Below, piece after piece: positions 1,003-34,029 of a stretch of 64,000 nt of DNA. The stretch comes from Alkalispirochaeta sp. (GTDB lineage: Bacteria; Spirochaetota; Spirochaetia; DSM-27196; Alkalispirochaetaceae), in the NCBI GenBank assembly GCA_965601925.1, contig OZ271854.1, positions 4,928,001 through 4,992,000 on the forward strand, in the 5' to 3' direction. Position 1 is the first letter of the stretch, and every line of letters begins with the position of its first letter. The notes beneath the pieces were generated by a model. The model was not told where the DNA came from. It searched no databases and was given only the letters and a program-made list of their open reading frames with translations. Both the position numbers and the translations under genes were made by a program.

Positions 1003-2271
1003 ATGCAAAACGGCCAGACGATCTGGCATCATATCGAGACGGAGTACACCGCGCCGGTGCGTGATCCCCTATGGAGTCATATTTACCTGTCACCGGCGAT
1101 GATGCGCCTCGTCGATACGAGTGAGTTCCAACAGTTGAGTCGCATCAAGCAACTGGGCCCTACCTACCTCGTCTATCCGGGAGCGACTCACACGCGCCTC
1201 AACCACAGTTTGGGGGTGTTTCATATCGCCAAGCGCATCGTCATGCGCTTGGTACACCACCCGGACGCGCCGGAGCTCACCCTGGAGGGCGTAAAGGCCT
1301 TCTTGGCGGCCGCACTTCTCCACGATGTCGGGCATTTTCCCTACACTCACAGCTTCAAGAGTCTGCCGTTGGTTGAACACGAACAACTCACCGCGCGCAT
1401 CGTCACCGAGGGGACGTTGGCGCGACGGATCCGCGACGAGCTCAACGTCAATCCGCGAGACGTCGCGGCGATCGTCGACGAATCGTTGGATACCGGCGGT
1501 AACCCCGAGATCGTCCTCTATCGGAATCTTCTCTCCGGAAGCCTCGACCCGGACAAGTTGGACTATCTCAACCGCGACGCCTATTTCTGCGGTGTTCCCT
1601 ACGGCCTGCAGGACATCGACTTCGCTTTGAGTCGCGTGGTACCGGTCGGATACGACGGGATCGGTCTGGAAGCGTCGGGCGTATCGGCGGTGGAGAATAT
1701 TCTCTTCTCAAAATATCTCATGTACCGCGCAGTGTATTGGCACCGGACGGTTCGGGTTGCGACCGCGATGATCAAAAAGGCCGTTCATATGGGGCTGCAA
1801 CACGGCGCGATTCAACCGAACGATCTTTACGGGCTCGACGACGAGCTGTTCATTACCCGTTTTACCGACCATACCTTTCCCGCCTTTACATTGATTGCGC
1901 ACGTAGGGACGCGCCGCCTGCTCAAGCCGGCCGCCGACATCCCCTTCGATCCCGCCGATCCCCGCCATCACCGACTCGCCGACATGGCGACGCGGCGCGC
2001 CATGGAAGCGAGCTTGGCGTCAGAGCTCGGCATTCCCGAACACCAGGTCATCATCGACCTGCCGGACCCGATCTCCTTCGAGGCGCACTTTCCGATCTTT
2101 GAGGAGGGGCACGCCCACGAGTTTGCCGAGAAGAGCGTCTTCTCCGCCGACGTGGTGCACCGATTTACCGAGACCATACGGCGCATCCGCCTGATCATTC
2201 CCCACGAGACGGCCGACCGACTCGGCGAGGCGCGAGGTCACCTGGAAGCGATACTCGACGATGTGGTCTGA
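1003..2271 (+). CDS. HD-domain phosphohydrolase (YwfO/dNTP triphosphohydrolase-like)
   Basis: RDPL...QQLSRIKQLG...YPGATHTRLNHSLG, LLHDVGHFPYTH, LDPDKLDYLNRD, VYWHRTVR motifs. Confidence 0.9.
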   Translation: MQNGQTIWHHIETEYTAPVRDPLWSHIYLSPAMMRLVDTSEFQQLSRIKQLGPTYLVYPGATHTRLNHSLGVFHIAKRIVMRLVHHPDAPELTLEGVKAFLAAALLHDVGHFPYTHSFKSLPLVEHEQLTARIVTEGTLARRIRDELNVNPRDVAAIVDESLDTGGNPEIVLYRNLLSGSLDPDKLDYLNRDAYFCGVPYGLQDIDFALSRVVPVGYDGIGLEASGVSAVENILFSKYLMYRAVYWHRTVRVATAMIKKAVHMGLQHGAIQPNDLYGLDDELFITRFTDHTFPAFTLIAHVGTRRLLKPAADIPFDPADPRHHRLADMATRRAMEASLASELGIPEHQVIIDLPDPISFEAHFPIFEEGHAHEFAEKSVFSADVVHRFTETIRRIRLIIPHETADRLGEARGHLEAILDDVV

Positions 2272-3034
2272 TCTCCTGACCGCGCAACCGCCGCCGGTGG
2301 TGATGCGATTTCTCAAGCGCCTCGGACGTGGTATTAATCGGTACGCGATGATCGGCGACGGAGACCGCGTGCTGGTATCGGTCTCGGGCGGCAAAGATTC
2401 CCTCGCCCTCGCCTACGGCCTCAAGCTCCGTCTCCGGTTTCTACCCATCAGCTACGAGCTCTATCCGGTTATGATCAACTGGCGCGAGCACCCCCATACG
2501 AGCGAGCGTGTCGCTTCAATTCGCGCCTTCTTCGACGCGCTGGAACTGCCGCTCCATATCATCGAGGCCGATATGAAACCCGAATCCTTCGGCGGCCGCT
2601 TCGATTGTTATCGGTGCGGGCGCAATCGACGACGCATACTCTTCGATTTGGTACGGGAGTGGGAGGGCCGTCCCCTCATCGCCACCGGTCACCATCTCGA
2701 CGACATCGTACAGACCACGCTCATGAATATGTGTTTTCGCGGCTCGTTTTCGACGATGAATCCCGTTCAACCGTTTTTTGACGACGCGCTGCGGGTCGTG
2801 CGACCGCTCTGCGAGGTGCGGGAACGGATGATCATCGAGGTGGCCGAGGCCGTAGCGCTTCCGGTGGGTTCGATCGATTGCCCGTTCCGGGAGCGCAACA
2901 TCCGCACGCGCGTCGCACCGGTGATAGATGAGCTGGAGCGCATCAATCCCGGTGTGCGTGAGAACATCTATCGCTCCCTCCACCGCGTCGACCGTGAGTA
3001 TCTTCCCACCGCCGTCGACGGCCGCAGGCTGTGA
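2261..3034 (+). CDS. ttcA: TtcA-family tRNA thiolation protein (PP-loop ATPase)
   Basis: SGGKDS PP-loop, CYRC, IATGHHLDD, VVRPL motifs. Confidence 0.75.
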   Translation: MWSDLLTAQPPPVVMRFLKRLGRGINRYAMIGDGDRVLVSVSGGKDSLALAYGLKLRLRFLPISYELYPVMINWREHPHTSERVASIRAFFDALELPLHIIEADMKPESFGGRFDCYRCGRNRRRILFDLVREWEGRPLIATGHHLDDIVQTTLMNMCFRGSFSTMNPVQPFFDDALRVVRPLCEVRERMIIEVAEAVALPVGSIDCPFRERNIRTRVAPVIDELERINPGVRENIYRSLHRVDREYLPTAVDGRRL

Positions 3035-3320
3035 CGGGGCGCAGCGTACGAAGGCGCGTGTGCGAACCATAAACGCGGACGGAAAACGTCGTCGATCGCT
3101 CAGCAGACGAAGACGTCTGAAGCCGCGCTCGCCACCGTTCTCCACCCTCAAGTGATATCTCCCGCGCCCCGGGGAAGGGGCACACCTCCCCGGCTTCGCC
3201 CGCAGTAAGCTCCCACACCACTTACGAAGCTTACCCGTCACAGTCTGATGCGCGAGGGATCGAAAGGGACCCGTAGGGCGTCTTGCGCAGCAAGACCGGA
3301 GCGGCAGGCGGGCGCACGGC

Positions 3321-3356
3321 GTTCACGTACCGCAGCCTTCGGCAAGGGACGTGGAC
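3321..3356 (+). repeat. Hairpin module X (related to the tandem-array unit at 59906-60134)
   Basis: gttcacgt-accgca-gcc.ttc.ggc-aaggg-acgtggac: 8-bp outer stem, ACCGCA internal loop, 3-bp inner stem. Confidence 0.45.
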
Positions 3357-3447
3357 AGAGTAGCTCGCCGTAGAGCCGCGGAGCCCTGCAGAGCCCGGTC
3401 TCCCCGCCATGCCCATTGAGGACGAGACACCCCGGTGGAACTACGCT

Positions 3448-3523
3448 GGGAGTGGGGGACGGTGGCGGGCGCGACTTCTGGCGTCTGCGCCTGCATGAGT
3501 GACCGACGCCGTCCCCCACTCCC
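3448..3523. repeat. Palindromic module Y, copy 1
   Basis: 15-bp perfect inverted repeat gggagtgggggacgg/ccgtcccccactccc enclosing cgcgacttctggc...gcctgcatgag, which recurs at 62262-62339. Confidence 0.65.
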
Positions 3524-3607
3524 TTCTCCGAGTCACCGGGGAGACGCGCCCGGTTACCGGCGAGTTGTGACGGCGCGTGTGATGATATACACTCTCAGAG
3601 CAGCGCT

Positions 3608-4066
3608 ATGAAGCAAAATCGTTTAATGCAGGAACGCATTCGTCGCACCACCATCCTCCTTCGTGAGCTCGGCTACGAGATTCAGGAGGGCGAGGTCGCC
3701 GACGACAGCTACAGCGCCGGGTTCGTCACGCCCGACGGGTTTCAAGCGGGATTCTTCATCGATGCCGACTCCAAGTTCCTGGAACTGGTCTTCACCTTCA
3801 CCTTCGGTAAGGGCATGGCCGACTTTGTCCGGGAGCGAATCGAGGAGGTGATGCACACCCTCTACGAGTACGGCTGTTACTTCACGCTACAAATCGATCA
3901 AGAGGAGATCAGCTACACCATCTTTTCCAAGATCTATTTCGCGGGGCTCAACTACTTTGCGCTCAAGGAGACGATTCGCGATTTTCGAGACGCGGTCGAT
4001 GCAAATCAGGAAATTTTTGAAATTCAATTAGAAAATGAACAAGGAGCGTCCTATGGCGATTCATAA
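3608..4066 (+). CDS. Hypothetical protein (acidic, possibly YbjN/chaperone-like fold)
   Basis: 152-aa ORF with coding-like composition; overlaps the start of the ComFB gene. Confidence 0.7.
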   Translation: MKQNRLMQERIRRTTILLRELGYEIQEGEVADDSYSAGFVTPDGFQAGFFIDADSKFLELVFTFTFGKGMADFVRERIEEVMHTLYEYGCYFTLQIDQEEISYTIFSKIYFAGLNYFALKETIRDFRDAVDANQEIFEIQLENEQGASYGDS

Positions 4067-4733
4067 CCTTATGGAAGAGCTCGCCGCTTCGGTGCTCGAC
4101 GAGGTATGCAAGGATGACCAGGCCGGAAGCCGACGATACTGCGCGAGCGAACAGTGCCGTACCGATGCGCTGTGCTACATACTCAACCGCATCCCACCGC
4201 GATACATCAGCTCCGGTCGCGGATTCGCCCACCTGACCGAAGAGTTACAGGACGATCAACAACTGATGATCGATGTCGTGCGCCTCGTCCATGAGGGGCT
4301 TCAACGGGTGAGCGCCGTCAGACGCACGTTCTACGATGTGGAATCGAAAGATGCACTTCAGGGGGCGTGTTTCAACTTCCCGACCATCAAGGGGCGCCTT
4401 TTGGACGGCGCCGGATTTCTGCCCGTTTCCGAGGTCGACGTCCAGCTCTTCCTCGACGGCGCATTGGTCGACATGTTCGATCAACGGTGGTCCAATCCGT
4501 ACCACGTGTCGGCGCAGACGCCCGGCACCTTCATCTTCTGGCCCGCCCCGATCAGCGTAACCGAGACCGGCAGCGACCGTAAGTTCGAGTTCGAACTACG
4601 CGTCGAGGAGCCCGGCTTCGATCCCCTTACCCACCTCTTTACGCTGGAGCTGACGAGCGAAAGCGGGGCGGAAGAGGTGTTCAACCTGGAGCGCGACCAC
4701 AAACTACCCGACTTGTACCTCTTTCGCCGGTAG
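4053..4733 (+). CDS. ComFB-family protein with C-terminal beta-rich extension
   Basis: HNLMEE...CASEQCRTDALCYILNRIPPRY ComFB signature; AAGGAG RBS before ATG 4053. Confidence 0.85.
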   Translation: MAIHNLMEELAASVLDEVCKDDQAGSRRYCASEQCRTDALCYILNRIPPRYISSGRGFAHLTEELQDDQQLMIDVVRLVHEGLQRVSAVRRTFYDVESKDALQGACFNFPTIKGRLLDGAGFLPVSEVDVQLFLDGALVDMFDQRWSNPYHVSAQTPGTFIFWPAPISVTETGSDRKFEFELRVEEPGFDPLTHLFTLELTSESGAEEVFNLERDHKLPDLYLFRR

Positions 4734-4766
4734 CGGCAGGGGTGCGGCCCGTCCCCGTCGCGCCGG

Positions 4767-5057
4767 TCAGTCGTAGATCTCGGTGTGGGTCTGGACGTCT
4801 TGAAGGCGCCCCGGCAGGTTGTGCTCGACGAAGGCGAGTACCTTCTGCATGACCCGCTCCCCGTGCTGCTTGTCGTTACTCACCAGCGCGACGCCGATCT
4901 GGGCAAAGGTGAGGCTCTCGTGCAGATCGACCTCCGCGGCGCTCACGTGAAACTTACGAATAACCCGGTCCCTCAGTCCGTGGACGATGCGTCGCTTGTC
5001 CTTCAGCGACTCCATGTCCGGAAGCTCGAGAACCATCATGAGCATGGACACGGTCAT
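4767..5057 (-). CDS. DUF503 (YlxP-like) protein
   Basis: SLKDKRRIV...KFHVSAAEV...IGVALVSN motif, 96 aa. Confidence 0.9.
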   Translation of the reverse strand: MTVSMLMMVLELPDMESLKDKRRIVHGLRDRVIRKFHVSAAEVDLHESLTFAQIGVALVSNDKQHGERVMQKVLAFVEHNLPGRLQDVQTHTEIYD

Positions 5058-5058
5058 C

Positions 5059-6186
5059 TCAGTCGAATAGGTCCTTGATATCGCCGAGACTCAAACTACT
5101 TCCCGCTTCGCCGTCCTCGGCGGCATTCTCCCGATCCTTCATCGGGAGGAAGGTGCGGTTATACTCCCGCGCCAAGCGGTACACGTCGTCGTCACGGTAC
5201 AAATCGGGGACGCGCACCTCGAGATTGTAGCTCTTTTCGGTCATACCGCGGCGCATGACGTGAATCGGGTCGGTCACGGTGAGGGCGAACTGCGGACTGT
5301 AGACGAACACCAACACGAGCACGAGCGCGAATATAACGGCGAAATATCGCAAATTCTCCGCCGCCTGCTCTTGATTGAGGGGCTTCAAGTCGACGAAGAC
5401 GGCAACATCGCCGGTCTCGAGGAGACCGTAGTCCGACGCTTGATAGTATCGATCGAGGTACGCTTGGCTGTGCCTGCTGTAACGGACCTCACCTCGGTGC
5501 TCGACGGTGAGTACCGTCGGTTCGGTGTCGGCAAATCGGCCGAGCGCCTCCTCGTTGCCTTCATCGGCTAAGCCCTCTTGGGCGATGTAGTGTAGCGCCG
5601 CCACGGCCTGCTCCTGGTAGGTCTGTTCCAACGACGGGAGCGTCACGGCGGTACCGGCGACCGCGAGCACGAGCAGCACGAAGACGAATACCGATACCCC
5701 CATGGCGGTGATTGTCGCGACGTGGCGCTGCGCCATGACCGAATCGGCGTTCTTGATACGGCGAAAGATCTTGAGCACGCGCAACAGTCTGAGCACACGA
5801 GCGATACGAATCGCCTTGACGACCTTGAGCACGTTGAGCATCCCGGCGACCCCGACGATCGACACGCCGCCCACGTACAAGGCCAGGACCGACGGGCCGC
5901 TATTGAACAGCAGAAGCGGTACGCTGGCGAGAAAGTCGATCCATCCGCGATCGAACCACAGATAGCGCCCGAGTCGACGATAGCGAAAGGCGTCGTAACT
6001 GCGCGTAAGAAACTCTACGGTAAAAAAGAGATCGAAAAAGAACCCCATCAACAAGAGTATGCGTTGCGCGGCGGCGCTCCACGCCAGGAGCGTCGCGACG
6101 TCTTCGAGAAAGGTCTGGACCAACACGAGGATGATAGCCAAAAGGACGACGTTTTCTAACCATGAACGTGTTCTGCTCATATCCAT
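5059..6186 (-). CDS. Ion_trans-like membrane protein (voltage-sensor-like S1-S4, periplasmic loop, HAMP-like tail)
   Basis: FDLFFTVEF, GWIDFLASVP, S4-like KAIRIARVLRLLRVLKIFR; C-terminal TDPIHVMRRGM...DDVYRLAREYN. Confidence 0.8.
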   Translation of the reverse strand: MDMSRTRSWLENVVLLAIILVLVQTFLEDVATLLAWSAAAQRILLLMGFFFDLFFTVEFLTRSYDAFRYRRLGRYLWFDRGWIDFLASVPLLLFNSGPSVLALYVGGVSIVGVAGMLNVLKVVKAIRIARVLRLLRVLKIFRRIKNADSVMAQRHVATITAMGVSVFVFVLLVLAVAGTAVTLPSLEQTYQEQAVAALHYIAQEGLADEGNEEALGRFADTEPTVLTVEHRGEVRYSRHSQAYLDRYYQASDYGLLETGDVAVFVDLKPLNQEQAAENLRYFAVIFALVLVLVFVYSPQFALTVTDPIHVMRRGMTEKSYNLEVRVPDLYRDDDVYRLAREYNRTFLPMKDRENAAEDGEAGSSLSLGDIKDLFD

Positions 6187-6189
6187 TAC

Positions 6190-7116
6190 CTACCACGCGT
6201 TCTCGGCGGCGATTTTGTACAACTCGTCGAGCATCTTGATATCGAAGCCGTAGAACTTGTAATTGCGCCGCGCGGTGTTAAACCAACTCTTATCCGGGCT
6301 GTCCGCCCCCCTATCAACCTTGATGTTGGACTGATAATTGCGGCTCCGGGTGCTCAACACCGCGGTCAGACGCGCGGTCGCCTCGATGAATCGGTTGTCG
6401 TTGAACGAGACACTGGCGTGCACCGCGCTCTTGAGAATCGACTCGGGAATCGGCCGCATCTCCTTCTTGAGCGTTCCCAGCACCTTCTCGGCGAACTGAT
6501 TCTGAACCATGCCCGTAGCGCGATCCTGCGGCGCCTGGGCGGTCGAGCCCACCAAGAAAACCGTCGGCTTTAGCAAGAGATTGACCTCTATGAAGTTGCG
6601 AATCTCCTCGGGGCCCAGACGCAGCCGTTGTACCTTCGTGAGCTCGAAGTGAATGTAGGACTTACGAGCGAAGATCTCATCGAGATACCGGTTGACCAGA
6701 CCGAAGTGCAACGCCGTATACGCTCCCGTAAAGGCGCGGCGCGCCTCCGGCTTCTCGAGCAACTTCTTCGTCATGCCGATAAGCTGACGCGCGATCGCCG
6801 CGTCGTCTCCCTGTTGCTGCTTGAGCAGCTGAATGAACGTGAAATCGATCTTCTCGGTTACGACGGCGTCGATATCGGCAAAGAGCTCTTGATTGGAAAT
6901 TTGGTACAGAGCGCTGATAAGCAAGGAGAAGATCTGATTCCAATTCTTTCCGGGAAAAAACTGGGCCGAACTGAGGGTAGGGGCGAGCTGGGCGGCGTTA
7001 ACGTGGAGGAACTGAATGATCTGCTCTTCCTTCTGCAGGACCGAAAATCCTTTGAGGGTCGGGTTCTGCAGCAACCGGCCGATGAAGGCTTGCGCTTTCT
7101 CACTCTCGCTGTTCAT
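6190..7116 (-). CDS. Hypothetical cytoplasmic protein
   Basis: 308-aa ORF with strong coding bias; first gene of a tight three-gene minus-strand operon. Confidence 0.8.
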   Translation of the reverse strand: MNSESEKAQAFIGRLLQNPTLKGFSVLQKEEQIIQFLHVNAAQLAPTLSSAQFFPGKNWNQIFSLLISALYQISNQELFADIDAVVTEKIDFTFIQLLKQQQGDDAAIARQLIGMTKKLLEKPEARRAFTGAYTALHFGLVNRYLDEIFARKSYIHFELTKVQRLRLGPEEIRNFIEVNLLLKPTVFLVGSTAQAPQDRATGMVQNQFAEKVLGTLKKEMRPIPESILKSAVHASVSFNDNRFIEATARLTAVLSTRSRNYQSNIKVDRGADSPDKSWFNTARRNYKFYGFDIKMLDELYKIAAENAW

Positions 7117-7304
7117 ACTGTTGTCACCTGCGCCATAATACTATGGTAATGTGCGAGGACTCAAGCCGCACGATTCCGACAAAAAGAAGAGATTTCGTCG
7201 TTTTGTTGAGTAGTACCGGGAGACATCGCTCCGTGCTGCGACCCTCATGCACCTCCCGCGACCGCTCGCTCGCCGTAAAACGCGCTCGGCACCGGACGCG
7301 TGCG

Positions 7305-10300
7305 GTGTGGCGACGATTCATCACGATACTCGTAGTGCTTGCGGCCGCTCGATCGGCGGCCGATGCGCAGGAGGCGCCGGCTCCCGGCCGGCAACCGGTC
7401 AATCCGTTTCTGGAGGATGAGGCGCCGCCCGCACTCTTCAATCTCGAGTCGGGGAGCACGGACGTCGATCTGTATGTGCTGGGGTCGTGGACCGCCTCCT
7501 CGCACATCGCGACGGGGTTTGCATTTCATCCGCCCCTGGAAGAGAACGGGCGGCGCGTCACTGTACCGTACGAGTATCCCGGCTTCGAGACGGTGTTATT
7601 CGCGCAAACGGTCGATCTGACGCTCTCACTTTGGTTGTACGAGCGCTTTTTTTTCGAGGCGAGCTTTGCCGACGAGTCCAATCTCAATACCATCGCCGCC
7701 GGATATTACGGACGAGAGGGCGAACTTGTGCGCGAACTCGTCGTCGGAAACGTTCCTCTCGCGGTGCAACAGTATCCCTACCAGTACGCGGGAAGCCCGG
7801 AGGCTCGCTCGGGACGGCGTCCGACCCCCGGTACCGTGCTACGCCTGGAGACCGAACGCACCTATCACGAACTCCTCGTTCAGTTGGAGAACTCGCGACA
7901 GGAACGCGTACGCTTCTCCGGCGGCGGAGTGGTAGAAGAGGTGAGAATCGCGCCGGAAAGCTACCTTCGGGAGCGCTTGTTCGTGCTACCCGACCGCGGG
8001 ATCCGCAATCTCGAGGTCTACCTCGAGGACGAGGAGGGCTCCGTCTTAGGCGGCGTCGGCGCCGCGCAACGGCGATTTCGCGCCCTGAATGAGGCGGACG
8101 GCGAGTATGTGGCCGACCTCGACGAGGGAACGCTCCGCCTCGGCGATGCGGTCGCCGGCGTCGGTACGGTTGCGGTCTATTACGAGACATCCCAAGGGGA
8201 GGTCGGAGACGCCGCCAACGGGACGTCCGCTCTGGTGCCGTTGGACGGCGAGACGCTCGCCCCCACGAGCGGATCACGCGTGGACTTTTCCTTTTCGAAC
8301 GCCGATCTCTACGATCTGTTGACCGGCGGCACGGGCATCGACGGGCCGGCGCTCGACGACTACGAACTGCCGTTGGCCGACGGTCGGTCGGCGCTCATCG
8401 TAGCGCGACCGGGACTCTGGTCACCCTTCGAGGCGGCGGGTCTCTACGCGTTGCCGCAGGAGATCGCCGACGACGAGGGGGCGTCCGACTCGATACGGAT
8501 CGCTCTCGTCTCGCGCGGTACGCGCACACCGATAGATGACGAGGCGCGCTACCAACCTGAGCGCATCGGCGACTCGGCGCTCCTGCTGCTGACGGCGACC
8601 GGAACGTCCACCGGAGAGTTGGAGTGGCGCTACCCTTTCGCCGGCCGTTCGCCACGGGAGGCCAACGCATCGATATACGGTCCCCTTGCCGCATCGGGAA
8701 TCGCGGCGTCGAACGTAGAGCTCCTCGTCTCGTACCGGAGCGACCGGGACAGCCTCTTTTTGGACGGCGACATCGTGCCCGGTACGGTCGTAATCACGGA
8801 GAACGGCCGTCCGTTGGACGGTGCGGAGATCGACTCCGCGACCGGCGAGATCACCCTCCCGCCGGGCCTTAGCGAAAACGCCACGATCGACGTGAGCTAC
8901 CGCGTCTATAGTCCGGGCGACGGCCCCGGCGATCTGGTGCTGATCGCCGGTAACCGCTGGCGGGCCGCTCCGGCGCTCTCATTGAGCCTCGCCTCCGGAT
9001 TACGATGGACCATATCGGACCAGGGTTTTTCCGAACAGATCGACCAAAACCCCGGCCAACTCACCGTCTCCGCCGGTGCGGAGTATACCGGCAAGCGGCT
9101 GTCGGTGGACGGTGCGATCGCACTTCAGGTCTCGCAAGCCGACACGACCGGATTCTTTCGCATCTTCGGAGGAAGTCCGGCGCAGACGCGCATCACTCCG
9201 GATATCGGTACGCTCTTCCCGGCAAGCGCGCCGACAGATCCGGTGCCGGCGGAGCCCACTCTCGATCTGACGGAGGCCAATCGTCGCTATCCGCGATATC
9301 GCGACTATTGGGAAACCGACGCACTGGGAGGCACCACCCTCGCGGCATATACCGCTTCACGCGCCGTCGACGCAGAGGAGTCCGGAGCGCGGATCGGTCC
9401 CTATCTCGCAAGCAGCCTCGACGATGATTTCACCGGGACCGTCGCGGTACTCGAGTGGGACGATCTGGGCGCCGGCGAGTGGCTCGGCGCGCAGATTCGC
9501 GTCTCCGCGGGCGAAATCGACCTGCGCGACGCCACCTCCGTTACCGTTTGGTACCGCTACGTCGCGACCGACTCGACGATCCCGACCGGTGCCGATCCCG
9601 CCCTTACGATACAGCTCGGGAGCGCGGCCGAGGACCTCGACGGCGACGGCGTCCTCGACGAGGGCCGAAGCGCGGTCGATCCGCTCCTCGACTTTGACGG
9701 AGCCGCGGGTCTGCGGCGGGCCGGTCAGGACGCGCCGATACGTACCGCGGCCCTTACCGAGGACGGCAACGCCAACGGGTTACTCGATATCGAGACGCCG
9801 ACGGCGATTTACTCGGGGACGGTAAGTGATCCGCTCGACTCCACCGTATGGCGCGAAGTGCGCCTCGATCTCGACTCCGACGACCGGAGCAATCTGGCGG
9901 CGGTACGTGCCGCGCGCATTATTCTCACCAACGGGAGCAGCGCCACGGACGACCTCGCCGCAGGACGAATCCTCGTCGGACGGATCGAAATCGAACGGAC
10001 GGAAGCGGCCTACATCGTGTCGAGAGGGGGCGGAAGCGCAACGGTGGCGATTCGAGACGATCCGGCGGGGAACGACGCAGCGGACGGCGTGCGTAGCCGA
10101 TTCGATCTGGTGGGAGAGCGTTTTGCCCCCGATGAGGAGGACCAGCGCGTTTTGGAACTCGACTGGTCGGGCGCTACCGCCGATGTCGAGGCGGAAATCG
10201 TCATACCGGAGTTTGCGCCCAACCGTTACGGCACGCTGCGCACCTTTATGTGGCTCTTTGACGACTCGGCGGTCGTAGGCGGCGACGACGAGCTGGTAGA

Positions 10301-12266
10301 GATCGAGCTCGCCCCCTCTCGCGGCGCCGCCGATGACGAGATCGTACGTTTTGCGTTACCGGCGCGGGAGATCATCGGACGTTGGCGACAGGTAGATTTC
10401 GATCTCAACGACGGAACGGTACTCGTCGACGGTGTTACGGTCTCGTCGTTCGATGTACGAACCGCCCCGGAGGACGCCGATTTTCTGCGCCTCGCTACGT
10501 TACGCGTCGGCGGCCTTGCAAACGGCACACTCTATCTCGACGAGCTTCACGCAGCGGACCCTCTCACTCAGTTTGCCACCGCCGCGCGCGTAGACGCGCG
10601 CTGGACCCATCTCATCGAGGAGGGCCGGCTGACGGGGGGCACTGTCACCGTCGAGCAGAGCGTGGACGCCCAGAGCGACGGGTTCCAGTCGGCGCAAACG
10701 CTGTCCGAGAGCGGATCGGCGAGTCCGGCGACGGTATCGAATCGCGCCCTGTCCAGCCGCACGGTCGCACGCTTCCGGCGGGAAGAGCTCGCGGCGGAGG
10801 TGCAAACGTCCGTGCGCGTCCTCGACTCCGGGAGTGACGGCGCATTCGGTCACCGGCTGGCGGTTCCCGTGCTCCCCCGCTCGATCCTCACTGTCGAGGA
10901 GCGCTTTCTGCGCGACTACTCGGTCGCCTCTCCCGTCGCGGACCGCAATGTGGCGATCAGTAGCCGCGGCTCGTGGGGCTCCTATCGCCTATCGGCCGCC
11001 AACCTCGCCGACAGCCGCGAGATCGAGCAGTCGTGGGCCGCCGTCGCAACGCCGCCGACGATCGGGCCGGTGGCGATCTCGCTCGCCCTCGATCTGGCGG
11101 TACGCTCCCTCGACAGAGAGATCGCATTGGAAGACTACGCCTCCTCGTGGGTGAGAAGTACCGAACACTTCGTGCCCCTGTCGGAGTCCGGACGGCGACA
11201 GGAACGACGCGCCGACGGCTCGGTCGATCTCGACCTCCTGCGGTGGTCGACCGGCCTCTCCGGGGGATGGACCAACCGCAGCTCGATATCGAGCGACCAG
11301 GATCACCGCGTGGATCTGCATTCCGAGCTTCCGATCGAATTCGACGCTCCCGGGAGGCGCCCGTGGCGCCTTGTCCCCTCCTACCGTCGTGATTACTTCT
11401 TTCAGGAGGAATTTGCGAGCGACACGTTTGCCGGCGACGCCGACGGCTGGGCCGAGCGGATCGCATCGGAGCCGCAGGTCTTCTCGACCGTGCCGATTGT
11501 GGAGCTCTTTCAGAGGAGCGATCGCATAGGCCTTACCTCGCTACCCACGGAGGGACTCACGCGAAGATACGACACAGAGGCGCGTGTGGCCGCGAGCCGC
11601 GCCTTCGCCTCCCGCCCCCGCGATCTGTGGGTACCTTCGGACGTAGAGGCGCTCGTTCGCCGAGAGCGGTCGTGGGAGGCGGACAGTAGCGAGGAGGTTC
11701 GATTGTGGCAGATGAGCCTGACCGCCGTCGCAATCAACCTGTACGGGACGGAGGGTAGCCGTCGGCGCTTCAATTGGTATCGGAGCGACGAGTTTCGAAA
11801 CGGTGTCGTCCTCGGCCTGGAGGAGGCGATCGACGGATCATCGCCGGCGTGGTCGATTTCGCTCGAGCAACAGACGGCGATCTTCGGCCATTCGGACAAC
11901 GAGTTGGAGGTTGTCTCGCGCGCCTCGATCGGGCGTGGCGAGACCACCGCGACCGACCTCTTCTCGGAGACGACGTACGCGTGGCGCCGGAATCGATATC
12001 CCCGTATTGCCGTGTTTGATCGCATGGAGGTGGAACCGTACTACCGTCACGAAGAACGCCTGAGCGCCGAGCTATCGTTCGAGGACGCTGGGTTTGTCGG
12101 AAGCGAGGTCCTCATCGGCCATCGTACCGTCCTGGTCGTCGGTACGCAAGGCGAGCTGAGTCTCTACGGGGACATCGGATGGCTCACCGATCCGGGAGAA
12201 TACGAGAGCGGAATGCTCCACGTCATCGGTTTTCAGGCGGGAATCGAGGCCAAGCTTACCTACTGA
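7305..12266 (+). CDS. Large outer-membrane protein with SprA/Sov-like (T9SS translocon) motifs, ~1653 aa
   Basis: GTG 7305 starts a signal peptide (VWRRFITILVVLAAARSAADA); SprA-like motifs in collinear order; C-terminal amphipathic strand ending GIEAKLTY. Confidence 0.65.
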   Translation: MWRRFITILVVLAAARSAADAQEAPAPGRQPVNPFLEDEAPPALFNLESGSTDVDLYVLGSWTASSHIATGFAFHPPLEENGRRVTVPYEYPGFETVLFAQTVDLTLSLWLYERFFFEASFADESNLNTIAAGYYGREGELVRELVVGNVPLAVQQYPYQYAGSPEARSGRRPTPGTVLRLETERTYHELLVQLENSRQERVRFSGGGVVEEVRIAPESYLRERLFVLPDRGIRNLEVYLEDEEGSVLGGVGAAQRRFRALNEADGEYVADLDEGTLRLGDAVAGVGTVAVYYETSQGEVGDAANGTSALVPLDGETLAPTSGSRVDFSFSNADLYDLLTGGTGIDGPALDDYELPLADGRSALIVARPGLWSPFEAAGLYALPQEIADDEGASDSIRIALVSRGTRTPIDDEARYQPERIGDSALLLLTATGTSTGELEWRYPFAGRSPREANASIYGPLAASGIAASNVELLVSYRSDRDSLFLDGDIVPGTVVITENGRPLDGAEIDSATGEITLPPGLSENATIDVSYRVYSPGDGPGDLVLIAGNRWRAAPALSLSLASGLRWTISDQGFSEQIDQNPGQLTVSAGAEYTGKRLSVDGAIALQVSQADTTGFFRIFGGSPAQTRITPDIGTLFPASAPTDPVPAEPTLDLTEANRRYPRYRDYWETDALGGTTLAAYTASRAVDAEESGARIGPYLASSLDDDFTGTVAVLEWDDLGAGEWLGAQIRVSAGEIDLRDATSVTVWYRYVATDSTIPTGADPALTIQLGSAAEDLDGDGVLDEGRSAVDPLLDFDGAAGLRRAGQDAPIRTAALTEDGNANGLLDIETPTAIYSGTVSDPLDSTVWREVRLDLDSDDRSNLAAVRAARIILTNGSSATDDLAAGRILVGRIEIERTEAAYIVSRGGGSATVAIRDDPAGNDAADGVRSRFDLVGERFAPDEEDQRVLELDWSGATADVEAEIVIPEFAPNRYGTLRTFMWLFDDSAVVGGDDELVEIELAPSRGAADDEIVRFALPAREIIGRWRQVDFDLNDGTVLVDGVTVSSFDVRTAPEDADFLRLATLRVGGLANGTLYLDELHAADPLTQFATAARVDARWTHLIEEGRLTGGTVTVEQSVDAQSDGFQSAQTLSESGSASPATVSNRALSSRTVARFRREELAAEVQTSVRVLDSGSDGAFGHRLAVPVLPRSILTVEERFLRDYSVASPVADRNVAISSRGSWGSYRLSAANLADSREIEQSWAAVATPPTIGPVAISLALDLAVRSLDREIALEDYASSWVRSTEHFVPLSESGRRQERRADGSVDLDLLRWSTGLSGGWTNRSSISSDQDHRVDLHSELPIEFDAPGRRPWRLVPSYRRDYFFQEEFASDTFAGDADGWAERIASEPQVFSTVPIVELFQRSDRIGLTSLPTEGLTRRYDTEARVAASRAFASRPRDLWVPSDVEALVRRERSWEADSSEEVRLWQMSLTAVAINLYGTEGSRRRFNWYRSDEFRNGVVLGLEEAIDGSSPAWSISLEQQTAIFGHSDNELEVVSRASIGRGETTATDLFSETTYAWRRNRYPRIAVFDRMEVEPYYRHEERLSAELSFEDAGFVGSEVLIGHRTVLVVGTQGELSLYGDIGWLTDPGEYESGMLHVIGFQAGIEAKLTY

Positions 12267-12360: not shown

Positions 12361-13824
12361 ATGAAAAAATGTGTTGTTCTCCCGCTAGCAATCTCTATAA
12401 TGCTGGCGTCTCCGCTCTCCCTGGTAGCCCAAGAGGACCAATCGGAGGGGGAAATAACATCAGAAGCGCAATCCGACGCACCGGAATCGGCCGACGAAGA
12501 GCGCGGGCGACCGAGTAGCGCGTCACCCGGCGGCGACGGACCGTTCGGTTTCGGGATGGGTATCGCCTTCGGCGTCAACTCGTTCGAGGACGATCAAACC
12601 GGCGCGGTGGAAACATACCAATTCATCGGTCTTCGACCCGATTTCTCCTTTGGGCGGTTCGGTGTCGGCCTCGACCTTACGGTGAACTACCGCTTTACCG
12701 GTGGGGACGACGGCGATGAGTTCGAAATACGGGAGGAAGATTGGGAGCCCGACGACGAGACGTCGTTTCTCGAGTTGTATCTTCCGAAGTTTCGTTATAT
12801 CCGCTACGGACAAAAAGGTGACGACCTGTTCGCTCGCTTCGGAGGCTTTTCCGACTCGACGCTCGGAAACGGCTTTATCGTCGGTAACTACTCCAATGAG
12901 CTGTTCCTTCCCGAGCGACGCATCTTCGGCGGTAACTTCGATCTTGACGGACAACTGTTCGGCGTGCCCTACTTCGGATTCGAGACGCTGGTATCAAACG
13001 TTGCTGCGTGGGATCTCATGGCGGGTCGCCTCTATGTGCGTCCCCTCGCCTCCTTAGAGGCGCCGCTCTTGCCGGCCCTACAAATCGGATCGACTATCGC
13101 GGTAGACCGCGACCCCTTCTACTTCGAAGAGCGCGATCCCGCGAGTGTGTTCTACACGGAGGCCGATCCGCGCGTGGACGCTCCGGACGAGCAGATCCTC
13201 GTATGGGGACTCGACGTACGCCAGCCGATTCTCGCCACCGATCTTATCAGCCTTGCAGCGTTCTCCGACGTCGCCAACCAGGACGGCCGGTGGGGCGGTA
13301 TGGTCGGTGTCGGTGGGCGCATTTCGGGCTTTCTCCTCTACGGTGCGCAGATCCACCTTCTCGAGGACAACTTCGTCGCGTCGTTTTTCGACTCGACCTA
13401 CGATCTGAGGCGGCCCGAGCGGTACGCAATCTACGAAGAGGAGACCGAGACCGACGGCGGCGCGGCGTGGCTCGCACGTATCGGCTTCGCCTTTCTCGCC
13501 GATTCGCTCGTCTTCGACACGACGGTCAGCGGGCCCTTCGACGCCTCCTCGGGACGCTATCCCGAGCTGCGATCGAGTCTGCTGTTGGCGGAGGGCGTCG
13601 TACCGGGCTTCTCGGGTCTCAGCTTTCAAGCGAGCTACGACAAATTCAACCTGCGGGATTACGACGATTTGTGGGACGCCAAGGATTCGATCATCGGCGC
13701 ACGGTTCAACATCCGTTCCGGCCCGGTCATGATCTCCTTGTTGTATAACCTTACCTACGATCCCAACGCCGACGGCGACCCCTGGACGGTCACCTCCGGG
13801 TTGGAAAGTACGATTTCGTTCTAA
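12361..13824 (+). CDS. Predicted outer-membrane beta-barrel protein
   Basis: AAGGAG RBS, signal peptide, alternating aromatic/Gly strands, terminal Phe (GLESTISF); paralogous to the C-terminal part of the next gene. Confidence 0.65.
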   Translation: MKKCVVLPLAISIMLASPLSLVAQEDQSEGEITSEAQSDAPESADEERGRPSSASPGGDGPFGFGMGIAFGVNSFEDDQTGAVETYQFIGLRPDFSFGRFGVGLDLTVNYRFTGGDDGDEFEIREEDWEPDDETSFLELYLPKFRYIRYGQKGDDLFARFGGFSDSTLGNGFIVGNYSNELFLPERRIFGGNFDLDGQLFGVPYFGFETLVSNVAAWDLMAGRLYVRPLASLEAPLLPALQIGSTIAVDRDPFYFEERDPASVFYTEADPRVDAPDEQILVWGLDVRQPILATDLISLAAFSDVANQDGRWGGMVGVGGRISGFLLYGAQIHLLEDNFVASFFDSTYDLRRPERYAIYEEETETDGGAAWLARIGFAFLADSLVFDTTVSGPFDASSGRYPELRSSLLLAEGVVPGFSGLSFQASYDKFNLRDYDDLWDAKDSIIGARFNIRSGPVMISLLYNLTYDPNADGDPWTVTSGLESTISF

Positions 13825-13837
13825 AGGGGGCGGCACG

Positions 13838-16051
13838 ATGAAACGAATAATTGTTACGGCCGTCGCGCTGATTATGATCTCGGCGACTGCGGCTGCGCAA
13901 CAGTCGCCGATTGCGATCCTCGAGTTTTACGACGATGAGTTCGAACTGGTCATCACCGACGCCAACGGTTTCGATGTGAGCTTCTATATCGGCATGGGCC
14001 TCTCACCGGGCGACCAGGTGGTAACCGGCGACACGTCGGCGGAACTGCGTCTGGACCCGAACGGGAGTATCATTCGGATCGCCCCGGAGACGACCTTTAC
14101 CGTAGGCTCGTTTCAAGGTCGCGACAACGCGCCCGAGACGTCGTTCGCGGTGGACCGTGGACGTATGAGGATGGTCGCGGCCCGCATTACCGGACGCGAC
14201 TCGCGCTATAGCATCGTGACGCCCACGGCGGTCGCCGGGGTGCGCGGCACCGACTTCGGCGTATCGGTCGTCGGGGAGGGCGCCGGCGTTCTTCCGTCGG
14301 AGGAGCTGTTCGTCTTCGAGGGCGAGGTCGTTTTTTCGTCCTTCGTCTCCGGCGAGGAGATTTCGGTCACGGCCGGACAGTTCGCCGATGCGTTCGCCGA
14401 GACGTTTCTCCCGCAGGTGATGACCCCCGAGCAACTACAACTCCGCCGGGAGGGGCTCGATTTTCAAGCCCTCGATCCGGCCGATGTGCCCGGTGCTCCG
14501 GAACCGGTCGAAGAGGAGCCGATACAGGACGTGGAACCGGCTGTTGTCGATCCCGTTCCGTCGCCGGGAGCCGCCGAACCGGGGGCCGGTGACGAACTAT
14601 TTGGACGAATCGCTTCGTTTACGGGGCTGCAGGTGGGCTCGGTGACGATCAACGAGGAGACGTGGGCGAAAGTGGTCTTTCAACCACGTCTTTCCATCGG
14701 ACGTCTGGCACTCGAACTCTACCTTCCGATTACCTACCGAGAAAACCTGTTCGATACCGGCGACTGGTACCGCCCGGAGGACAACGACGAGTGGTCGTTC
14801 GGTACCGACCAAGACTGGTCGGAGGAGCCGGAAGAGGGGCTGCGCGACTTGGGAACCGACCTCGCGCTCAAGATTCGGTCCATCGAGTACGGAGAGCATG
14901 GGGATCGTTTCTTCTTCAAGGTTGGCAATCTTTCCAACTTCACCGTCGGGCAAGGGTTGTTGATGCGTAACTACGCCAACGACATCGACTTTCCGGCCGT
15001 GCGAAACGTCGGTTTTAACCTCGGCGCGGATTTCGGCGGTGTCGGAATCGAGGCGGTCGTCAACGACCTTACGGAGCCCGAGATTTACGGCGGGCGACTC
15101 TTTTTCCGCCCCGACGGCTCCCGGACCCCGGTCGCGGTCGGCCTCTCCGGAATCGCGGACGTCAACCCCACCGGCGAGATATCGGCTACGGGAGGTGCGG
15201 AGCTCGGAGTCGGCGTCGATGAGATATATACGGCCGCCGAGGATAGCGATCTGTACTTCCTCAATGTAGGAGCGGACATCGAGTTTACGGTGATCGATCG
15301 CGAGCGGCTCGGCATCATCGGTTTCGCCGAGATAGGAAGTATGCTTCCCTACGTGCGCGAGGGCACGACGTTATTCGGAGAGGAGATCGATTCGGGACTG
15401 CGCGACGACGCGGTGTTCGACTCGTGGGCGCTGAACAACTACGGTTGGAACACGGGCGTGCGGGGACGCGTGGCGCTCCTCGACTATCGCCTCGAGTTTC
15501 GCAGCTTCGACGGCATATTCCGACCGGGCTTCTACGGTCCGACTTATGATCGGATTCGCGGACAGCGAGCGGCGGAGGTCATTACGTATCTGTCGGACCC
15601 CGAGAACGAAGAGTTCGATGTGCTGACGATGGGCGTCGCCGGAGAGGCGGGCGCCAGTCTCTTTGAGGTGCTCTACCTTTCCGCCGGCTACTTCTGGCCG
15701 TGGGAGGTGGACGACGGATCGTGGCGCGGCAGCAATGAGGACGAGTTTCTCTTTTCGGTGACGGCGCAAGAGGGGTTGATTCCCTTCGGCATCCAGGCGG
15801 GGTTTGAATATCGTCGCACTCACTTCGCGGCTACGATCGCCGGTTGGGGAGAGTACTCCGAGGCGACGCTCTTTGACGCCAATACGACCCTCGACGCATT
15901 CGTCGCCTATCCGTTCAATGAGTTCGTGAGCCTCGTGGCACGCGTCTCCACCGCGGCGCAGAGAGACTCCGAGGGAGAGATCATCTACGACTCCGACGGA
16001 AATCCGCGTATGGCGCCGACGGTTGTCATACAAACCCAGATCGGGTTTTAG
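13838..16051 (+). CDS. FecR-domain protein fused to a predicted outer-membrane beta-barrel
   Basis: Signal peptide; GDQVVTGD..AELRL..GSIIRI..TPTAVAGVRGTDF FecR motif; Pro/Glu linker; barrel-like domain ending QTQIGF. Confidence 0.75.
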   Translation: MKRIIVTAVALIMISATAAAQQSPIAILEFYDDEFELVITDANGFDVSFYIGMGLSPGDQVVTGDTSAELRLDPNGSIIRIAPETTFTVGSFQGRDNAPETSFAVDRGRMRMVAARITGRDSRYSIVTPTAVAGVRGTDFGVSVVGEGAGVLPSEELFVFEGEVVFSSFVSGEEISVTAGQFADAFAETFLPQVMTPEQLQLRREGLDFQALDPADVPGAPEPVEEEPIQDVEPAVVDPVPSPGAAEPGAGDELFGRIASFTGLQVGSVTINEETWAKVVFQPRLSIGRLALELYLPITYRENLFDTGDWYRPEDNDEWSFGTDQDWSEEPEEGLRDLGTDLALKIRSIEYGEHGDRFFFKVGNLSNFTVGQGLLMRNYANDIDFPAVRNVGFNLGADFGGVGIEAVVNDLTEPEIYGGRLFFRPDGSRTPVAVGLSGIADVNPTGEISATGGAELGVGVDEIYTAAEDSDLYFLNVGADIEFTVIDRERLGIIGFAEIGSMLPYVREGTTLFGEEIDSGLRDDAVFDSWALNNYGWNTGVRGRVALLDYRLEFRSFDGIFRPGFYGPTYDRIRGQRAAEVITYLSDPENEEFDVLTMGVAGEAGASLFEVLYLSAGYFWPWEVDDGSWRGSNEDEFLFSVTAQEGLIPFGIQAGFEYRRTHFAATIAGWGEYSEATLFDANTTLDAFVAYPFNEFVSLVARVSTAAQRDSEGEIIYDSDGNPRMAPTVVIQTQIGF

Positions 16052-31879: not shown

Positions 31880-32354
31880 TACGAACTAAAAATGAAAAGG
31901 CTGTAAATAAGGACGCCGCGAAGCTTGCCCCGACCCATTTTCCTGCGACGGTGTACGAGATCGACCCCTTCATGTCTCCGGGATATGGTGCCGCTTTTAC
32001 CGTCGCGACCATTGTGAAGGAAGCGGGCGATAGAAAGTGGTTTCACCGAAACCGGGTGCTTGACTGCGGCGGTGTTTTCTCTCAATCCCACCTTCCTATT
32101 GCTGTTTCGCGCTTGTGCTCCGAGGTAGCTTTTCCTATCATCAAAAAATGAGTTATCCGCTATTCAACTACCGGAATGCCTTTTTTGACCACCTCTTTCA
32201 GCGACGGTATTTCGGCGAAAGTCACTGCAGCACCGTTGGAGCCGATTTTTGCTCAATTTGCCAACTCAGCTGCCTTTCATGTTCTCGTACTCACCACACC
32301 GGTTGTGTAATAGAGAGCAGTTTTCTGACTTTGGATAATTTTGCCCATTTTCAT
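31880..32354. pseudogene. Decayed low-GC coding remnants
   Basis: Minus frame from ATG 32354 reads protein-like through in-frame stops; plus frame has PGYGAAFTVATIVKEAGDRKWF, resembling an IS110 motif. Confidence 0.3.
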
Positions 32355-32403
32355 GCTTTGAATCCTGAACTTGTTTAGATGAGCCGCGAAGGGGACGAGG
32401 GTA

Positions 32404-33714
32404 GTGGTCGCATCTACGGCAAGTTCAACGTTCAGCAATGAAAATGTCGGAAGATTACTGATAAAGCTCTCTTTTCCCTCAATTATTGCTCTACTAGCGA
32501 ACTCATTTTACAATATTGTGGACGCTATCATTATTGGGAGAGTGATTGGGCCCGTTGCAATGGGAGCCATATCGATCGTTCTGCCTCTTCAACGCGTGAT
32601 AATGGCAGTCCCGATGATGTTGGGTTTGGGCGCTTCCACCTTGATATCCGTTCGACTCGGCAAACGCGAGTCTGCTGGGGCACAAAGAGCGGCAGGAAAT
32701 GCGTTTTTTCTTTCCGGTGTTGCCGGCCTCGCTCTTGTACTTCTTGGTCTGTCGTTTCTCAGGCCCATTATGGTTGCTTTCGGTAGCACTCCGTCAATTC
32801 TACCGTTTGCAAGTCGATACGGCATGATTCTTATCCTCGGATCGCCTTTCTATATGGCAATGATAACTGCTCTGCAACTCATACGATCGGAGGGAAAGGC
32901 GTCATACGCAATGATAGCAATGATGTCCGGGACCTTTTTGAATGTGGGCTTAGATCTTCTCTTTGTTTTGATTTTCGATATGGGCATCACAGGTGTTGCA
33001 GTGGCCACCGTCCTGTCGCAGTTCGTATCGTTTCTGTTTGTACTGTTGTTCTATCTTACCGATCGGTCCGACATACGGTTGAGAGTTTCTCACCTACGGT
33101 TTGACAAAAAGACTATCACGGAAATGCTTCCCCTGAGCTTTCCCCCACTCGTCAACCAGTTGAGTAACATTCTTACTCCTCTGACAATTAACAATCTGCT
33201 GCGAGTGCATGCGGGTGCCCTCCACATCGCCGTATTCGGTATCGTGTATCGCCTGATGTTCTTCCTGAGGGTTCCGGTTTATGGAACGGTGCAAGGCTAT
33301 CGACCTATAGTTGGTTACAACTACGGCGCCGGAGAGATGCATCGGGTCAAGCGTGTAACGGCTATCGCCTTACTCTCACTATTCGTTTTTTCTGCTGTGT
33401 GTTGTTTGGTATTCTTTTTTCTACCACGATCGATTATTGGCATTTTTAGCAGAGATATGAATGTAATCGAGTCGGGAAGCCACGCGCTTCGAATAGCAGT
33501 TCTCTTGTTCCCGTTCTTTTCGGTGCACGCAATCGGCAGAAACTATTTTCAGGCAATAAAAAACGCACGGAGCTCTGTACTTCTCTTTGTTCTACCCAAC
33601 TTTGTTCTCTTTATTCCCGCAGCAATTATCTTTCCGATGGTGTTCGGTATCGACGGTATATGGTGGGCGTTTCCATTTTCCGATTTTGTTACCGCAATGG
33701 TTGCCGCGATATAG
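32404..33714 (+). CDS. MATE family efflux transporter (MepA-like); last helix possibly truncated by TAG
   Basis: YNIVDAIIIG, RSEGKA, LNVGLD.LF, GYNYGAG; visibly lower GC than the flanks. Confidence 0.92.
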   Translation: MVASTASSTFSNENVGRLLIKLSFPSIIALLANSFYNIVDAIIIGRVIGPVAMGAISIVLPLQRVIMAVPMMLGLGASTLISVRLGKRESAGAQRAAGNAFFLSGVAGLALVLLGLSFLRPIMVAFGSTPSILPFASRYGMILILGSPFYMAMITALQLIRSEGKASYAMIAMMSGTFLNVGLDLLFVLIFDMGITGVAVATVLSQFVSFLFVLLFYLTDRSDIRLRVSHLRFDKKTITEMLPLSFPPLVNQLSNILTPLTINNLLRVHAGALHIAVFGIVYRLMFFLRVPVYGTVQGYRPIVGYNYGAGEMHRVKRVTAIALLSLFVFSAVCCLVFFFLPRSIIGIFSRDMNVIESGSHALRIAVLLFPFFSVHAIGRNYFQAIKNARSSVLLFVLPNFVLFIPAAIIFPMVFGIDGIWWAFPFSDFVTAMVAAI

Positions 33715-33940
33715 CTTGGACAAAGCTTTCGTACCTTCTTTGCAACTCAGACCGAGCCGCTGGAGTAGATGCCCGTCGACTTGCCACATATCCTACAAGT
33801 TCCGGTTACTGTTTGACTCGCCACGTGTTCCCGCATAAGTGGCGGAACCACCTGCTAGTATACGCATAGTGTAATAAAATTATTTTTATATTATTTTATT
33901 AATTTTATTTAAAATTATTGTTTTGGAGCCTCATGGTGTC

Positions 33941-34029
33941 GGAAAAAATTCGAATTTATTCTCCTTCTGGTGTATAGCCCGCTGAATTTTCAGGCTGTAG
34001 AGTGGAACGAAACCCACCTAAGGAGACTC
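33941..34029 (+). promoter_or_regulatory. 89-nt leader/regulatory element upstream of oadG (copy 1)
   Basis: 76/89 ungapped identity to the reverse complement of 40430-40518; ends in the AAGGAG RBS. Confidence 0.85.

Follow-up and report, generated by a model that had tools for sequence, protein, structure and literature searches.

The 64,000-nucleotide stretch analyzed here (the window) belongs to genome G000, which consists of one contig of 5.05 Mb and is 96.7% complete. On its forward strand, the frame 7143-12266 is open throughout, and a GTG at position 7305 gives rise to a product of 1653 amino acids (7305-12266), a predicted SprA/Sov-like giant outer-membrane barrel protein. Its exact start is uncertain and may lie at 7305 or 7233, since the public gene call comprises 1677 residues (P0002) as compared with the 1653 read from the GTG. 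The only hydrophobic segment of the protein is N-terminal and is followed by a signal-peptidase-like site, ADA/Q, consistent with a Sec signal peptide predicted for residues 1-21 (7305-7367), whereas the C-terminus reads ...IEAKLTY, the last residue being aromatic (Tyr). The initial annotation, which had described a protein of this length with a signal peptide and an aromatic terminal strand, was therefore borne out, and the motifs it had quoted were found where it had placed them (7599-7988, 8772-8900, 9612, 9756, and 9849-9926). The gene is real and not a chance reading frame, because homologues occur in all 41 related genomes, a count that includes G000, and a profile of 36 close homologues (A1) matched 138 of 301 genomes of the phylum. 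The named homologues come from Alkalispirochaeta sp. and Spirochaetaceae, share 44-50% identity with the window protein, and are all labeled 'hypothetical'; with Treponema denticola and Thermospira among the genomes of the same phylum, the spirochaete host that had been suggested is supported.

Gene neighborhood

Two genes follow the barrel gene on the same strand: one encoding an uncharacterized predicted beta-barrel, B2 (12361-13824), and one encoding a FecR-domain protein whose C-terminal part is paralogous to B2 (13838-16051). Of 20 loci from the window's order, 19 preserve the arrangement barrel-B2-FecR-mutL, and B2 and the FecR gene also flank the barrel gene in two loci of another class. 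B2 was found in none of 21 Treponemataceae, many of these having the barrel, and it was found in four genomes that have no barrel (G042, G045, G048, and G049). On these grounds we rejected B2 and the FecR protein as obligate partners and regard the arrangement as a conserved neighborhood rather than the core of a system. The same data bear on an alternative reading, namely that a SprA-derived channel serves uptake or outer-membrane assembly with the B2 and FecR proteins as partners, and that the CTD-like tail described below is an ordinary FlgD-Ig domain. The conserved gene order speaks in its favor, as does the abundance of FlgD-Ig repeats in these genomes; however, B2 does not follow the barrel in either direction, and we consider this reading quite improbable.

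Several further observations concern the surroundings of the locus. The B2 and FecR proteins (window 12361-16051) are paralogous barrels that are usually paired across much of Spirochaetota, and their barrel part belongs to no Pfam family. An upstream block (window 1003-7116), composed of genes for an HD hydrolase, a PP-loop ATPase, a 152-aa hypothetical protein, ComFB, an Ion_trans protein, and a 308-aa hypothetical protein, keeps its synteny with the barrel gene throughout the order. Several Treponemataceae have the SprA-like gene and, upstream of it, a DinB/Pol IV gene in a single open frame (L047:7600-13851(-), L048:6564-12641(+), L049:8113-13986(-), L067:7097-13045(-), and L080:7437-13382(-); P0137-P0139). 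These shared frames, in which a signal-peptide-like stretch follows DinB, represent either genuine fusions or overlaps in the same frame where the second gene starts internally; genomes of the T. denticola type have two separate genes that adjoin each other directly. The Treponema loci also hold, upstream of dinB, a conserved 650-aa gene whose product has the look of a multi-pass membrane protein; elsewhere in G000, only a weak match to it was found. Finally, window positions 32001-34000 have a GC content of 0.465 versus about 0.60 and a strong AT skew around an ORF for a 436-aa membrane-transporter-like protein, and this stretch was possibly acquired.

Homology to SprA, predicted fold, and distribution

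Searching Pfam, NCBIfam, and PDB directly with the window protein gave no match. In the genome search, neither PF14349 (SprA_N) nor TIGR04189 matched it, the latter returning only an unrelated weak match over G000, and none of 25 close homologues and none of 28 more distant ones had a Pfam SprA_N match. Hence, the SprA_N check proposed in the initial annotation failed on this protein, as did TIGR04189; it falls short of the curated SprA/Sov family cut-offs, and its homology is visible only through intermediates. The first lead came from the ESM Atlas, in which the cluster ranked third (score 0.97) has SprA_N in 12% of its members. TIGR04189 matched 13 of the 28 more distant spirochaete homologues with E values of 1e-23 to 1e-42 and one more at 0.007; none of the spirochaete homologues tested reached its cut-off, the best spirochaete-type one scoring 167.7 bits against the required 200.

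Neither A1 nor a mixed profile (A2) reached SprA in PDB. An alignment of 19 long, deeper spirochaete homologues with no member from the window's order (A3), however, matched Flavobacterium johnsoniae SprA (PDB 6h3i) with an E value of 7.5e-35 in collinear stretches covering SprA residues 166-553 and 609-887 and, weakly, 1284-1402 and 1463-1526. The same profile matched the window ORF at 8.5e-41 as the sole hit among 31,447 genome ORFs; since its members had been picked by the A1 search, this latter match is partly by construction, a reservation that does not apply to the link with SprA. A1 and A3 themselves align end-to-end over 1489 columns (hhalign probability 100). Furthermore, A2 retrieved two proteins that exceed the TIGR04189 cut-off, at 438 and 573 bits, one of which clusters with Gemmatimonadota 'SprA' and the other of which matches 6h3i at 1.5e-29. 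A1 scored the 6h3i-matching protein at 22 bits, with four collinear pieces and one out-of-order piece, as compared with -3 bits for the reversed sequence. The homology to SprA is thus collinear and transitive via one shared profile, A3, and the resemblance in motif order that had been noted at the outset holds for the first two motif blocks, which align through this chain to F. johnsoniae SprA 166-553 and 609-887. Judged by these profile comparisons, the window ORF is a remote SprA/Sov homologue.

The fold was modeled on the 1139-aa T. denticola homologue from 42 sequences (pLDDT 83, pTM 0.66), and that of the window protein was obtained by mapping. The model contains 36 long strands, arranged as seven, an inserted domain, and then 29, a number counted from the DSSP list without coordinates, so that barrel closure and a lateral opening lie outside what the count shows. 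Each of the 36 could be placed on the window protein by hhalign (probability 100), strands 12-13 being misregistered at a deletion. Foldseek placed SprA at ranks 1-4 for the T. denticola model (E values 4e-16 to 9e-9; query TM 0.50, 0.50, 0.48, and 0.32), and the remaining matches listed had TM values of at most 0.22; the rmsd in the SprA fold match was about 19 A. In SprA, two large domains are placed after strands 7 and 11. Its number of strands is likewise 36 (PMC10994853).

Mapped in this way, the window protein is predicted to be a 36-strand outer-membrane barrel. Strands 1-7 would span residues 54-195 (7464-7889), where the stretch corresponding to SprA 166-553 begins, and a first inserted domain, containing the IVPGTVVITENG block, would lie between strands 7 and 8 (residues 196-541; 7890-8927); this domain is homologous to SprA within 166-553 and 609-887. 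Predicted strands 8-11 (residues 542-612; 8928-9140) precede a second inserted domain at about residues 613-1085 (9141-10559), which bears the acidic motifs EDLDGDG and EDGNANG and is missing from the oral Treponema homologues; correspondingly, the T. denticola form lacks profile positions ~585-1115. Predicted strands 12-36, with an uncertain register for strands 12-13, would end in the terminal aromatic strand (10560-12263). The profile chain, the homologue model, and the fold search together support the original proposal of a shortened SprA homologue in a spirochaete.

The barrel falls into size classes of about 1140, 1600-1700, and 1850-2000 residues, the 1139-aa form being T. denticola AAS11455.1 and an 1886-aa form coming from Thermospira aquatica. 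An N-terminal profile of the family gathered 1,482 clusters (50% identity) at E<=1e-30. Of ten clusters looked up, one was named Leptospiraceae, one Candidatus Hydrogenedentota, and one 'hypothetical', and seven had no name, so that the family may reach beyond Spirochaetota. Within Treponemataceae, the barrel has been patchily lost (21/28), and in the five barrel-negative members of the family that were searched with a treponeme-specific profile, without a positive control, none was detected. In a FastTree phylogeny (33 sequences, 653 columns) with very long branches, the window protein groups with its own class, four Treponemataceae group together (0.99), and the spirochaete proteins form a group separate from Gemmatimonadota SprA (0.93). 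Since the root rests on three non-Bacteroidota SprA-family proteins only (the P0114/P0185 cluster and P0113), two of them from one cluster, we claim neither a donor nor a direction of transfer.

The long branches, the patchy loss in Treponemataceae, and the loss of a 500-aa domain in oral treponemes could be taken to mean that the gene is the remnant of a transferred T9SS, now decaying and without a present function. This idea is largely refuted, and we find it scarcely credible, in view of the intact frames of 1.1-2.0 kaa across classes, the presence of the gene in every one of the relatives, the many clusters recovered, and the fact that the T. denticola-type deletion spares all 36 strands.

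Candidate cargo and carrier

In G000, TIGR04183 pointed to a 4170-codon frame (C1:282845-295354), and the match ends at the stop codon. The encoded 4156-aa protein, our candidate cargo, starts with a signal-like sequence, has a high content of Gly, Ala, and Thr, contains 11 DUF5649 repeats, and is exactly the one protein in this genome with a C-terminal T9SS type-A-like CTD. It thereby combines a signal peptide with a very C-terminal type A domain as a T9SS substrate does, the assignment being borderline: the domain straddles the TIGR04183 cut-off (25.2 bits in one search, 21.6 in another) and matches FlgD-Ig better than Por_Secre_tail. Among 16 aligned CTDs, 10 have a Lys close to the end and two have an Arg. 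Of 41 relatives, 29 contain a match to the last 250 residues of the cargo, for the most part at 37-70% identity and in frames of very different length, and 10 of the 12 relatives without a match are assemblies of at least 200 contigs.

To follow this domain we used a CTD profile of 16 sequences, all from barrel-positive genomes, which was run on the same 301 genomes of the phylum as A1. At E<1e-20, all 30 barrel-positive genomes of the window's class had a full-length CTD and none of the 16 barrel-negative ones did; the frames carrying it ranged from 1,100 to 7,462 aa with a median of 2,330, some of them being truncated at contig ends. Within genus g24, at the same threshold, seven of 12 genomes had both barrel and CTD and five had neither, two of these five with weak matches near 1e-7. 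The association is looser across the phylum: at 1e-7, 122 genomes had both, 16 the barrel only, 17 the CTD only, and 146 neither, and at 1e-12 the corresponding numbers were 88, 50, 4, and 159; kin are included in these counts, so the genomes are not independent. It is the terminal CTD, and not B2, that tracks the barrel, and both were lost together within one genus, which further argues against a repurposed channel working with B2 and the FecR protein. The suggestion that the barrel serves a T9SS-derived secretion or outer-membrane-assembly machine gained specific support in its first half, from the CTD co-occurrence and a PorV-like carrier; the assembly half found no support.

Other CTD-related genes were also noticed. 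Deep-branching spirochaetes (G044, G046, G060, G074, G086, G098, and G119) have at least 15-16 CTD matches each and may possess a fuller, multi-cargo system; in G119, which is 78% complete, no barrel match was found. In G071, CTD-bearing genes of 2,550-2,620 aa occur in tandem (L130:3587-19100), with four such giant frames in that genome. A lipoprotein-like gene of ~400-470 aa without a Pfam match (G000 C1:281329-282723(+); L122:1330-2724; L098-L120) faces the cargo gene in convergent orientation in most of the relatives examined, and its product is a candidate accessory protein. Barrel-FlgD-Ig-OmpA proteins were considered as cargo and rejected, their Ig repeats being internal and their C-terminus being OmpA. 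Such proteins are encoded in G000 at C1:3470273-3475573(-) (L123), C1:3789008-3793078(+) (L124), and C1:4865794-4868781(-) (L125); they are related to NCBIfam Lsa66, their G047 relative (L093) has a weak N-terminal PorV-family match (E 5.9e-6), and they are possible outer-membrane-to-peptidoglycan tethers. Three ~3,100-aa frames of G000 (C1:1338968-1348438, 4152469-4161744, and 4315339-4324755, all on the minus strand) share the same N-terminal sequence and have divergent C-termini, like a polymorphic secreted-protein family.

A candidate carrier is encoded at C1:4306391-4307665. It matches NF033709 (PorV/PorQ family) with 91-92 bits, just above the cut-off of 90, whereas the Pfam PorV family PF19572 had no match in G000. 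The gene is present in 41 of 41 relatives, its T. denticola counterpart (AAS12637.1) is named as a member of the UPF0164/TP_0548 family, and in G047 a UPF0164-family gene lies directly upstream of the cargo gene. The PorV-like gene is not exclusive to the system, since it is also found in the barrel-less genomes G279 and G142. A model of the CTD-carrier complex reached an ipSAE of 0.90, as compared with 0.00 for the best of 3 controls. The mark applied, rough for this case, is attained by 116 of 157 solved pairs and by 2 of 215 mismatched ones; the runs shared at least 93% of contacts, and the partner pLDDT was at least 89. In the model, the near-terminal Lys of the CTD touches the carrier, a contact reported for T9SS CTDs (PMC10994853). 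We thus predict that the PorV-family barrel binds the cargo CTD. However, this result may reflect memory of solved structures, and because PorV-CTD complexes have already been solved (8gl6 and 8gl8), the model shows likeness and not binding.

Proposed mechanism and relation to known systems

The canonical T9SS includes a GldLM/PorLM motor, a GldKN/PorKN hub, and the sortase PorU, and nothing above cut-off was found for motor or hub. GldM and GldN gave no match in 5 of 5 genomes each, GldL gave only weak matches (E about 0.003) in the spirochaete genomes searched, and GldK gave only C-terminal partial matches of at most 92.6 of 350 bits, and it also matched in Bacillus and Methanosarcina. No positive-control genome matched in the GldL, GldM, and GldN searches, so these results mean 'not found' and leave room for divergent forms. 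The early remark that the window holds no GldKLMN genes thus extends to the whole genome, where no match exceeded the cut-off. In the search for PorU, a Peptidase_C25 match was found in one of five genomes (G060), not in G000 or G323, and the barrel loci inspected contain no conserved motor-like neighbor.

Taken together, these observations led us to propose that the SprA-like barrel is probably the pore of a reduced type IX-like system that exports a giant CTD-tagged surface protein, a reading built on observed homology, gene distribution, and co-occurrence and on a predicted fold and CTD-carrier contact. In F. johnsoniae, cargo docks by its CTD on a carrier inside the barrel and leaves sideways (PMC10994853). 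By analogy, the 4156-aa cargo, in which a signal peptide is seen, would cross the inner membrane by Sec; its CTD would then enter the barrel and bind the PorV-family carrier, and the two would exit through a lateral opening as inferred from SprA. Because PorU was not found, the cargo is probably uncleaved, retaining its CTD and staying tethered on the surface. Release would probably proceed without a GldLM motor.

It is mainly in this last step that a rival view differs, according to which the barrel acts as translocon in a complete and energized T9SS, with a motor and hub that have diverged too far to be detected or been replaced by another proton-driven complex. The barrel itself escapes its own family model, so GldLM and GldKN could do so too, and the silent GldL/M/N controls point the same way; on the other hand, the lack of any GldM or GldN match in the five genomes, the marginal GldL matches, partial GldK matches that also occur in Bacillus and Methanosarcina, and the loci inspected, with no conserved motor-like neighbor, make this view unlikely, if far from negligible. 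Substrate release in F. johnsoniae requires the motor and SprE (PMC10994853), and for the presence of a divergent energizer in the spirochaete system we consider the chances about evenly balanced. Returning to the reduced system, a bolder version may be put forward tentatively, at slightly less than an even chance: spirochaetes including T. denticola would run a three-part exporter made of a SprA-like barrel, a UPF0164/PorV-like carrier, and one giant CTD-tagged surface protein, with no GldLM, in which the 1139-aa T. denticola barrel would be a minimal translocon of 36 strands and which would be the first such route outside FCB.

Such a system would matter in several ways. A translocon, carrier, and cargo travelling together through Spirochaetota would extend the T9SS to a distant phylum and offer spirochaetes a possible route for displaying very large proteins. 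Here, AAS10659.1 is named as a putative variable giant surface protein in the periodontal pathogen T. denticola, and a new role, that of a CTD carrier, is suggested for the TP_0548 family. A natural version that apparently has no motor, and that in T. denticola is shorter than SprA by half, would make testable both what a minimal translocon is and whether release always needs energy. The T9SS is commonly placed in the FCB group only. It is also described as Bacteroidetes-only (10.1101/031039). The main text of a T9SS survey (PMC11705866) contains neither 'Treponema' nor 'Spirochaet', and our search, with supplements and most subscription journals outside it, found no published work on spirochaete SprA or CTD cargo.

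Compared with known systems, the spirochaete one resembles a T9SS translocon and fails as a canonical T9SS on motor, hub, and sortase. Members of the UPF0164/TP_0548 family, which includes the proposed carrier, are usually read as FadL-like transporters; here a role as CTD carrier is proposed, though the family is also present where no barrel was found. A PorV/PorQ-family barrel is described in Brachyspira, with no SprA homologue mentioned alongside in the available part of that source (10.1101/2025.01.03.631275). The nearest named sequences retrieved by a spirochaete profile are the Gemmatimonadota 'Cell surface protein SprA' (P0114/P0185 cluster, about 2010-2030 aa), which, unlike the spirochaete proteins grouping apart from it, passes the TIGR04189 cut-off and belongs to another phylum. 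Melioribacter and Ignavibacterium are relatives of Bacteroidota. They have SprA, PorV, and Plug without other T9SS proteins according to the available part of the survey (PMC11705866), i.e., a translocon and carrier with no motor as in our case; however, their SprA is readily detected, and no cargo is named there. The closest comparison is with SprA/Sov of F. johnsoniae (6h3i, 6h3j, 8gl6, and 8gl8): the N-terminal two thirds are collinear via intermediates, the T. denticola homologue model has the same number of predicted strands and SprA as its top fold match, and the spirochaete barrel occurs alongside a PorV-family barrel and a protein of the CTD type. In contrast to the 2403-aa F. johnsoniae protein, the window protein has 1653 residues and that of T. 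denticola 1139, below all family cut-offs, and the host is a member of Spirochaetota in which GldKLMN and PorU were not found and one cargo, in G000, takes the place of many.
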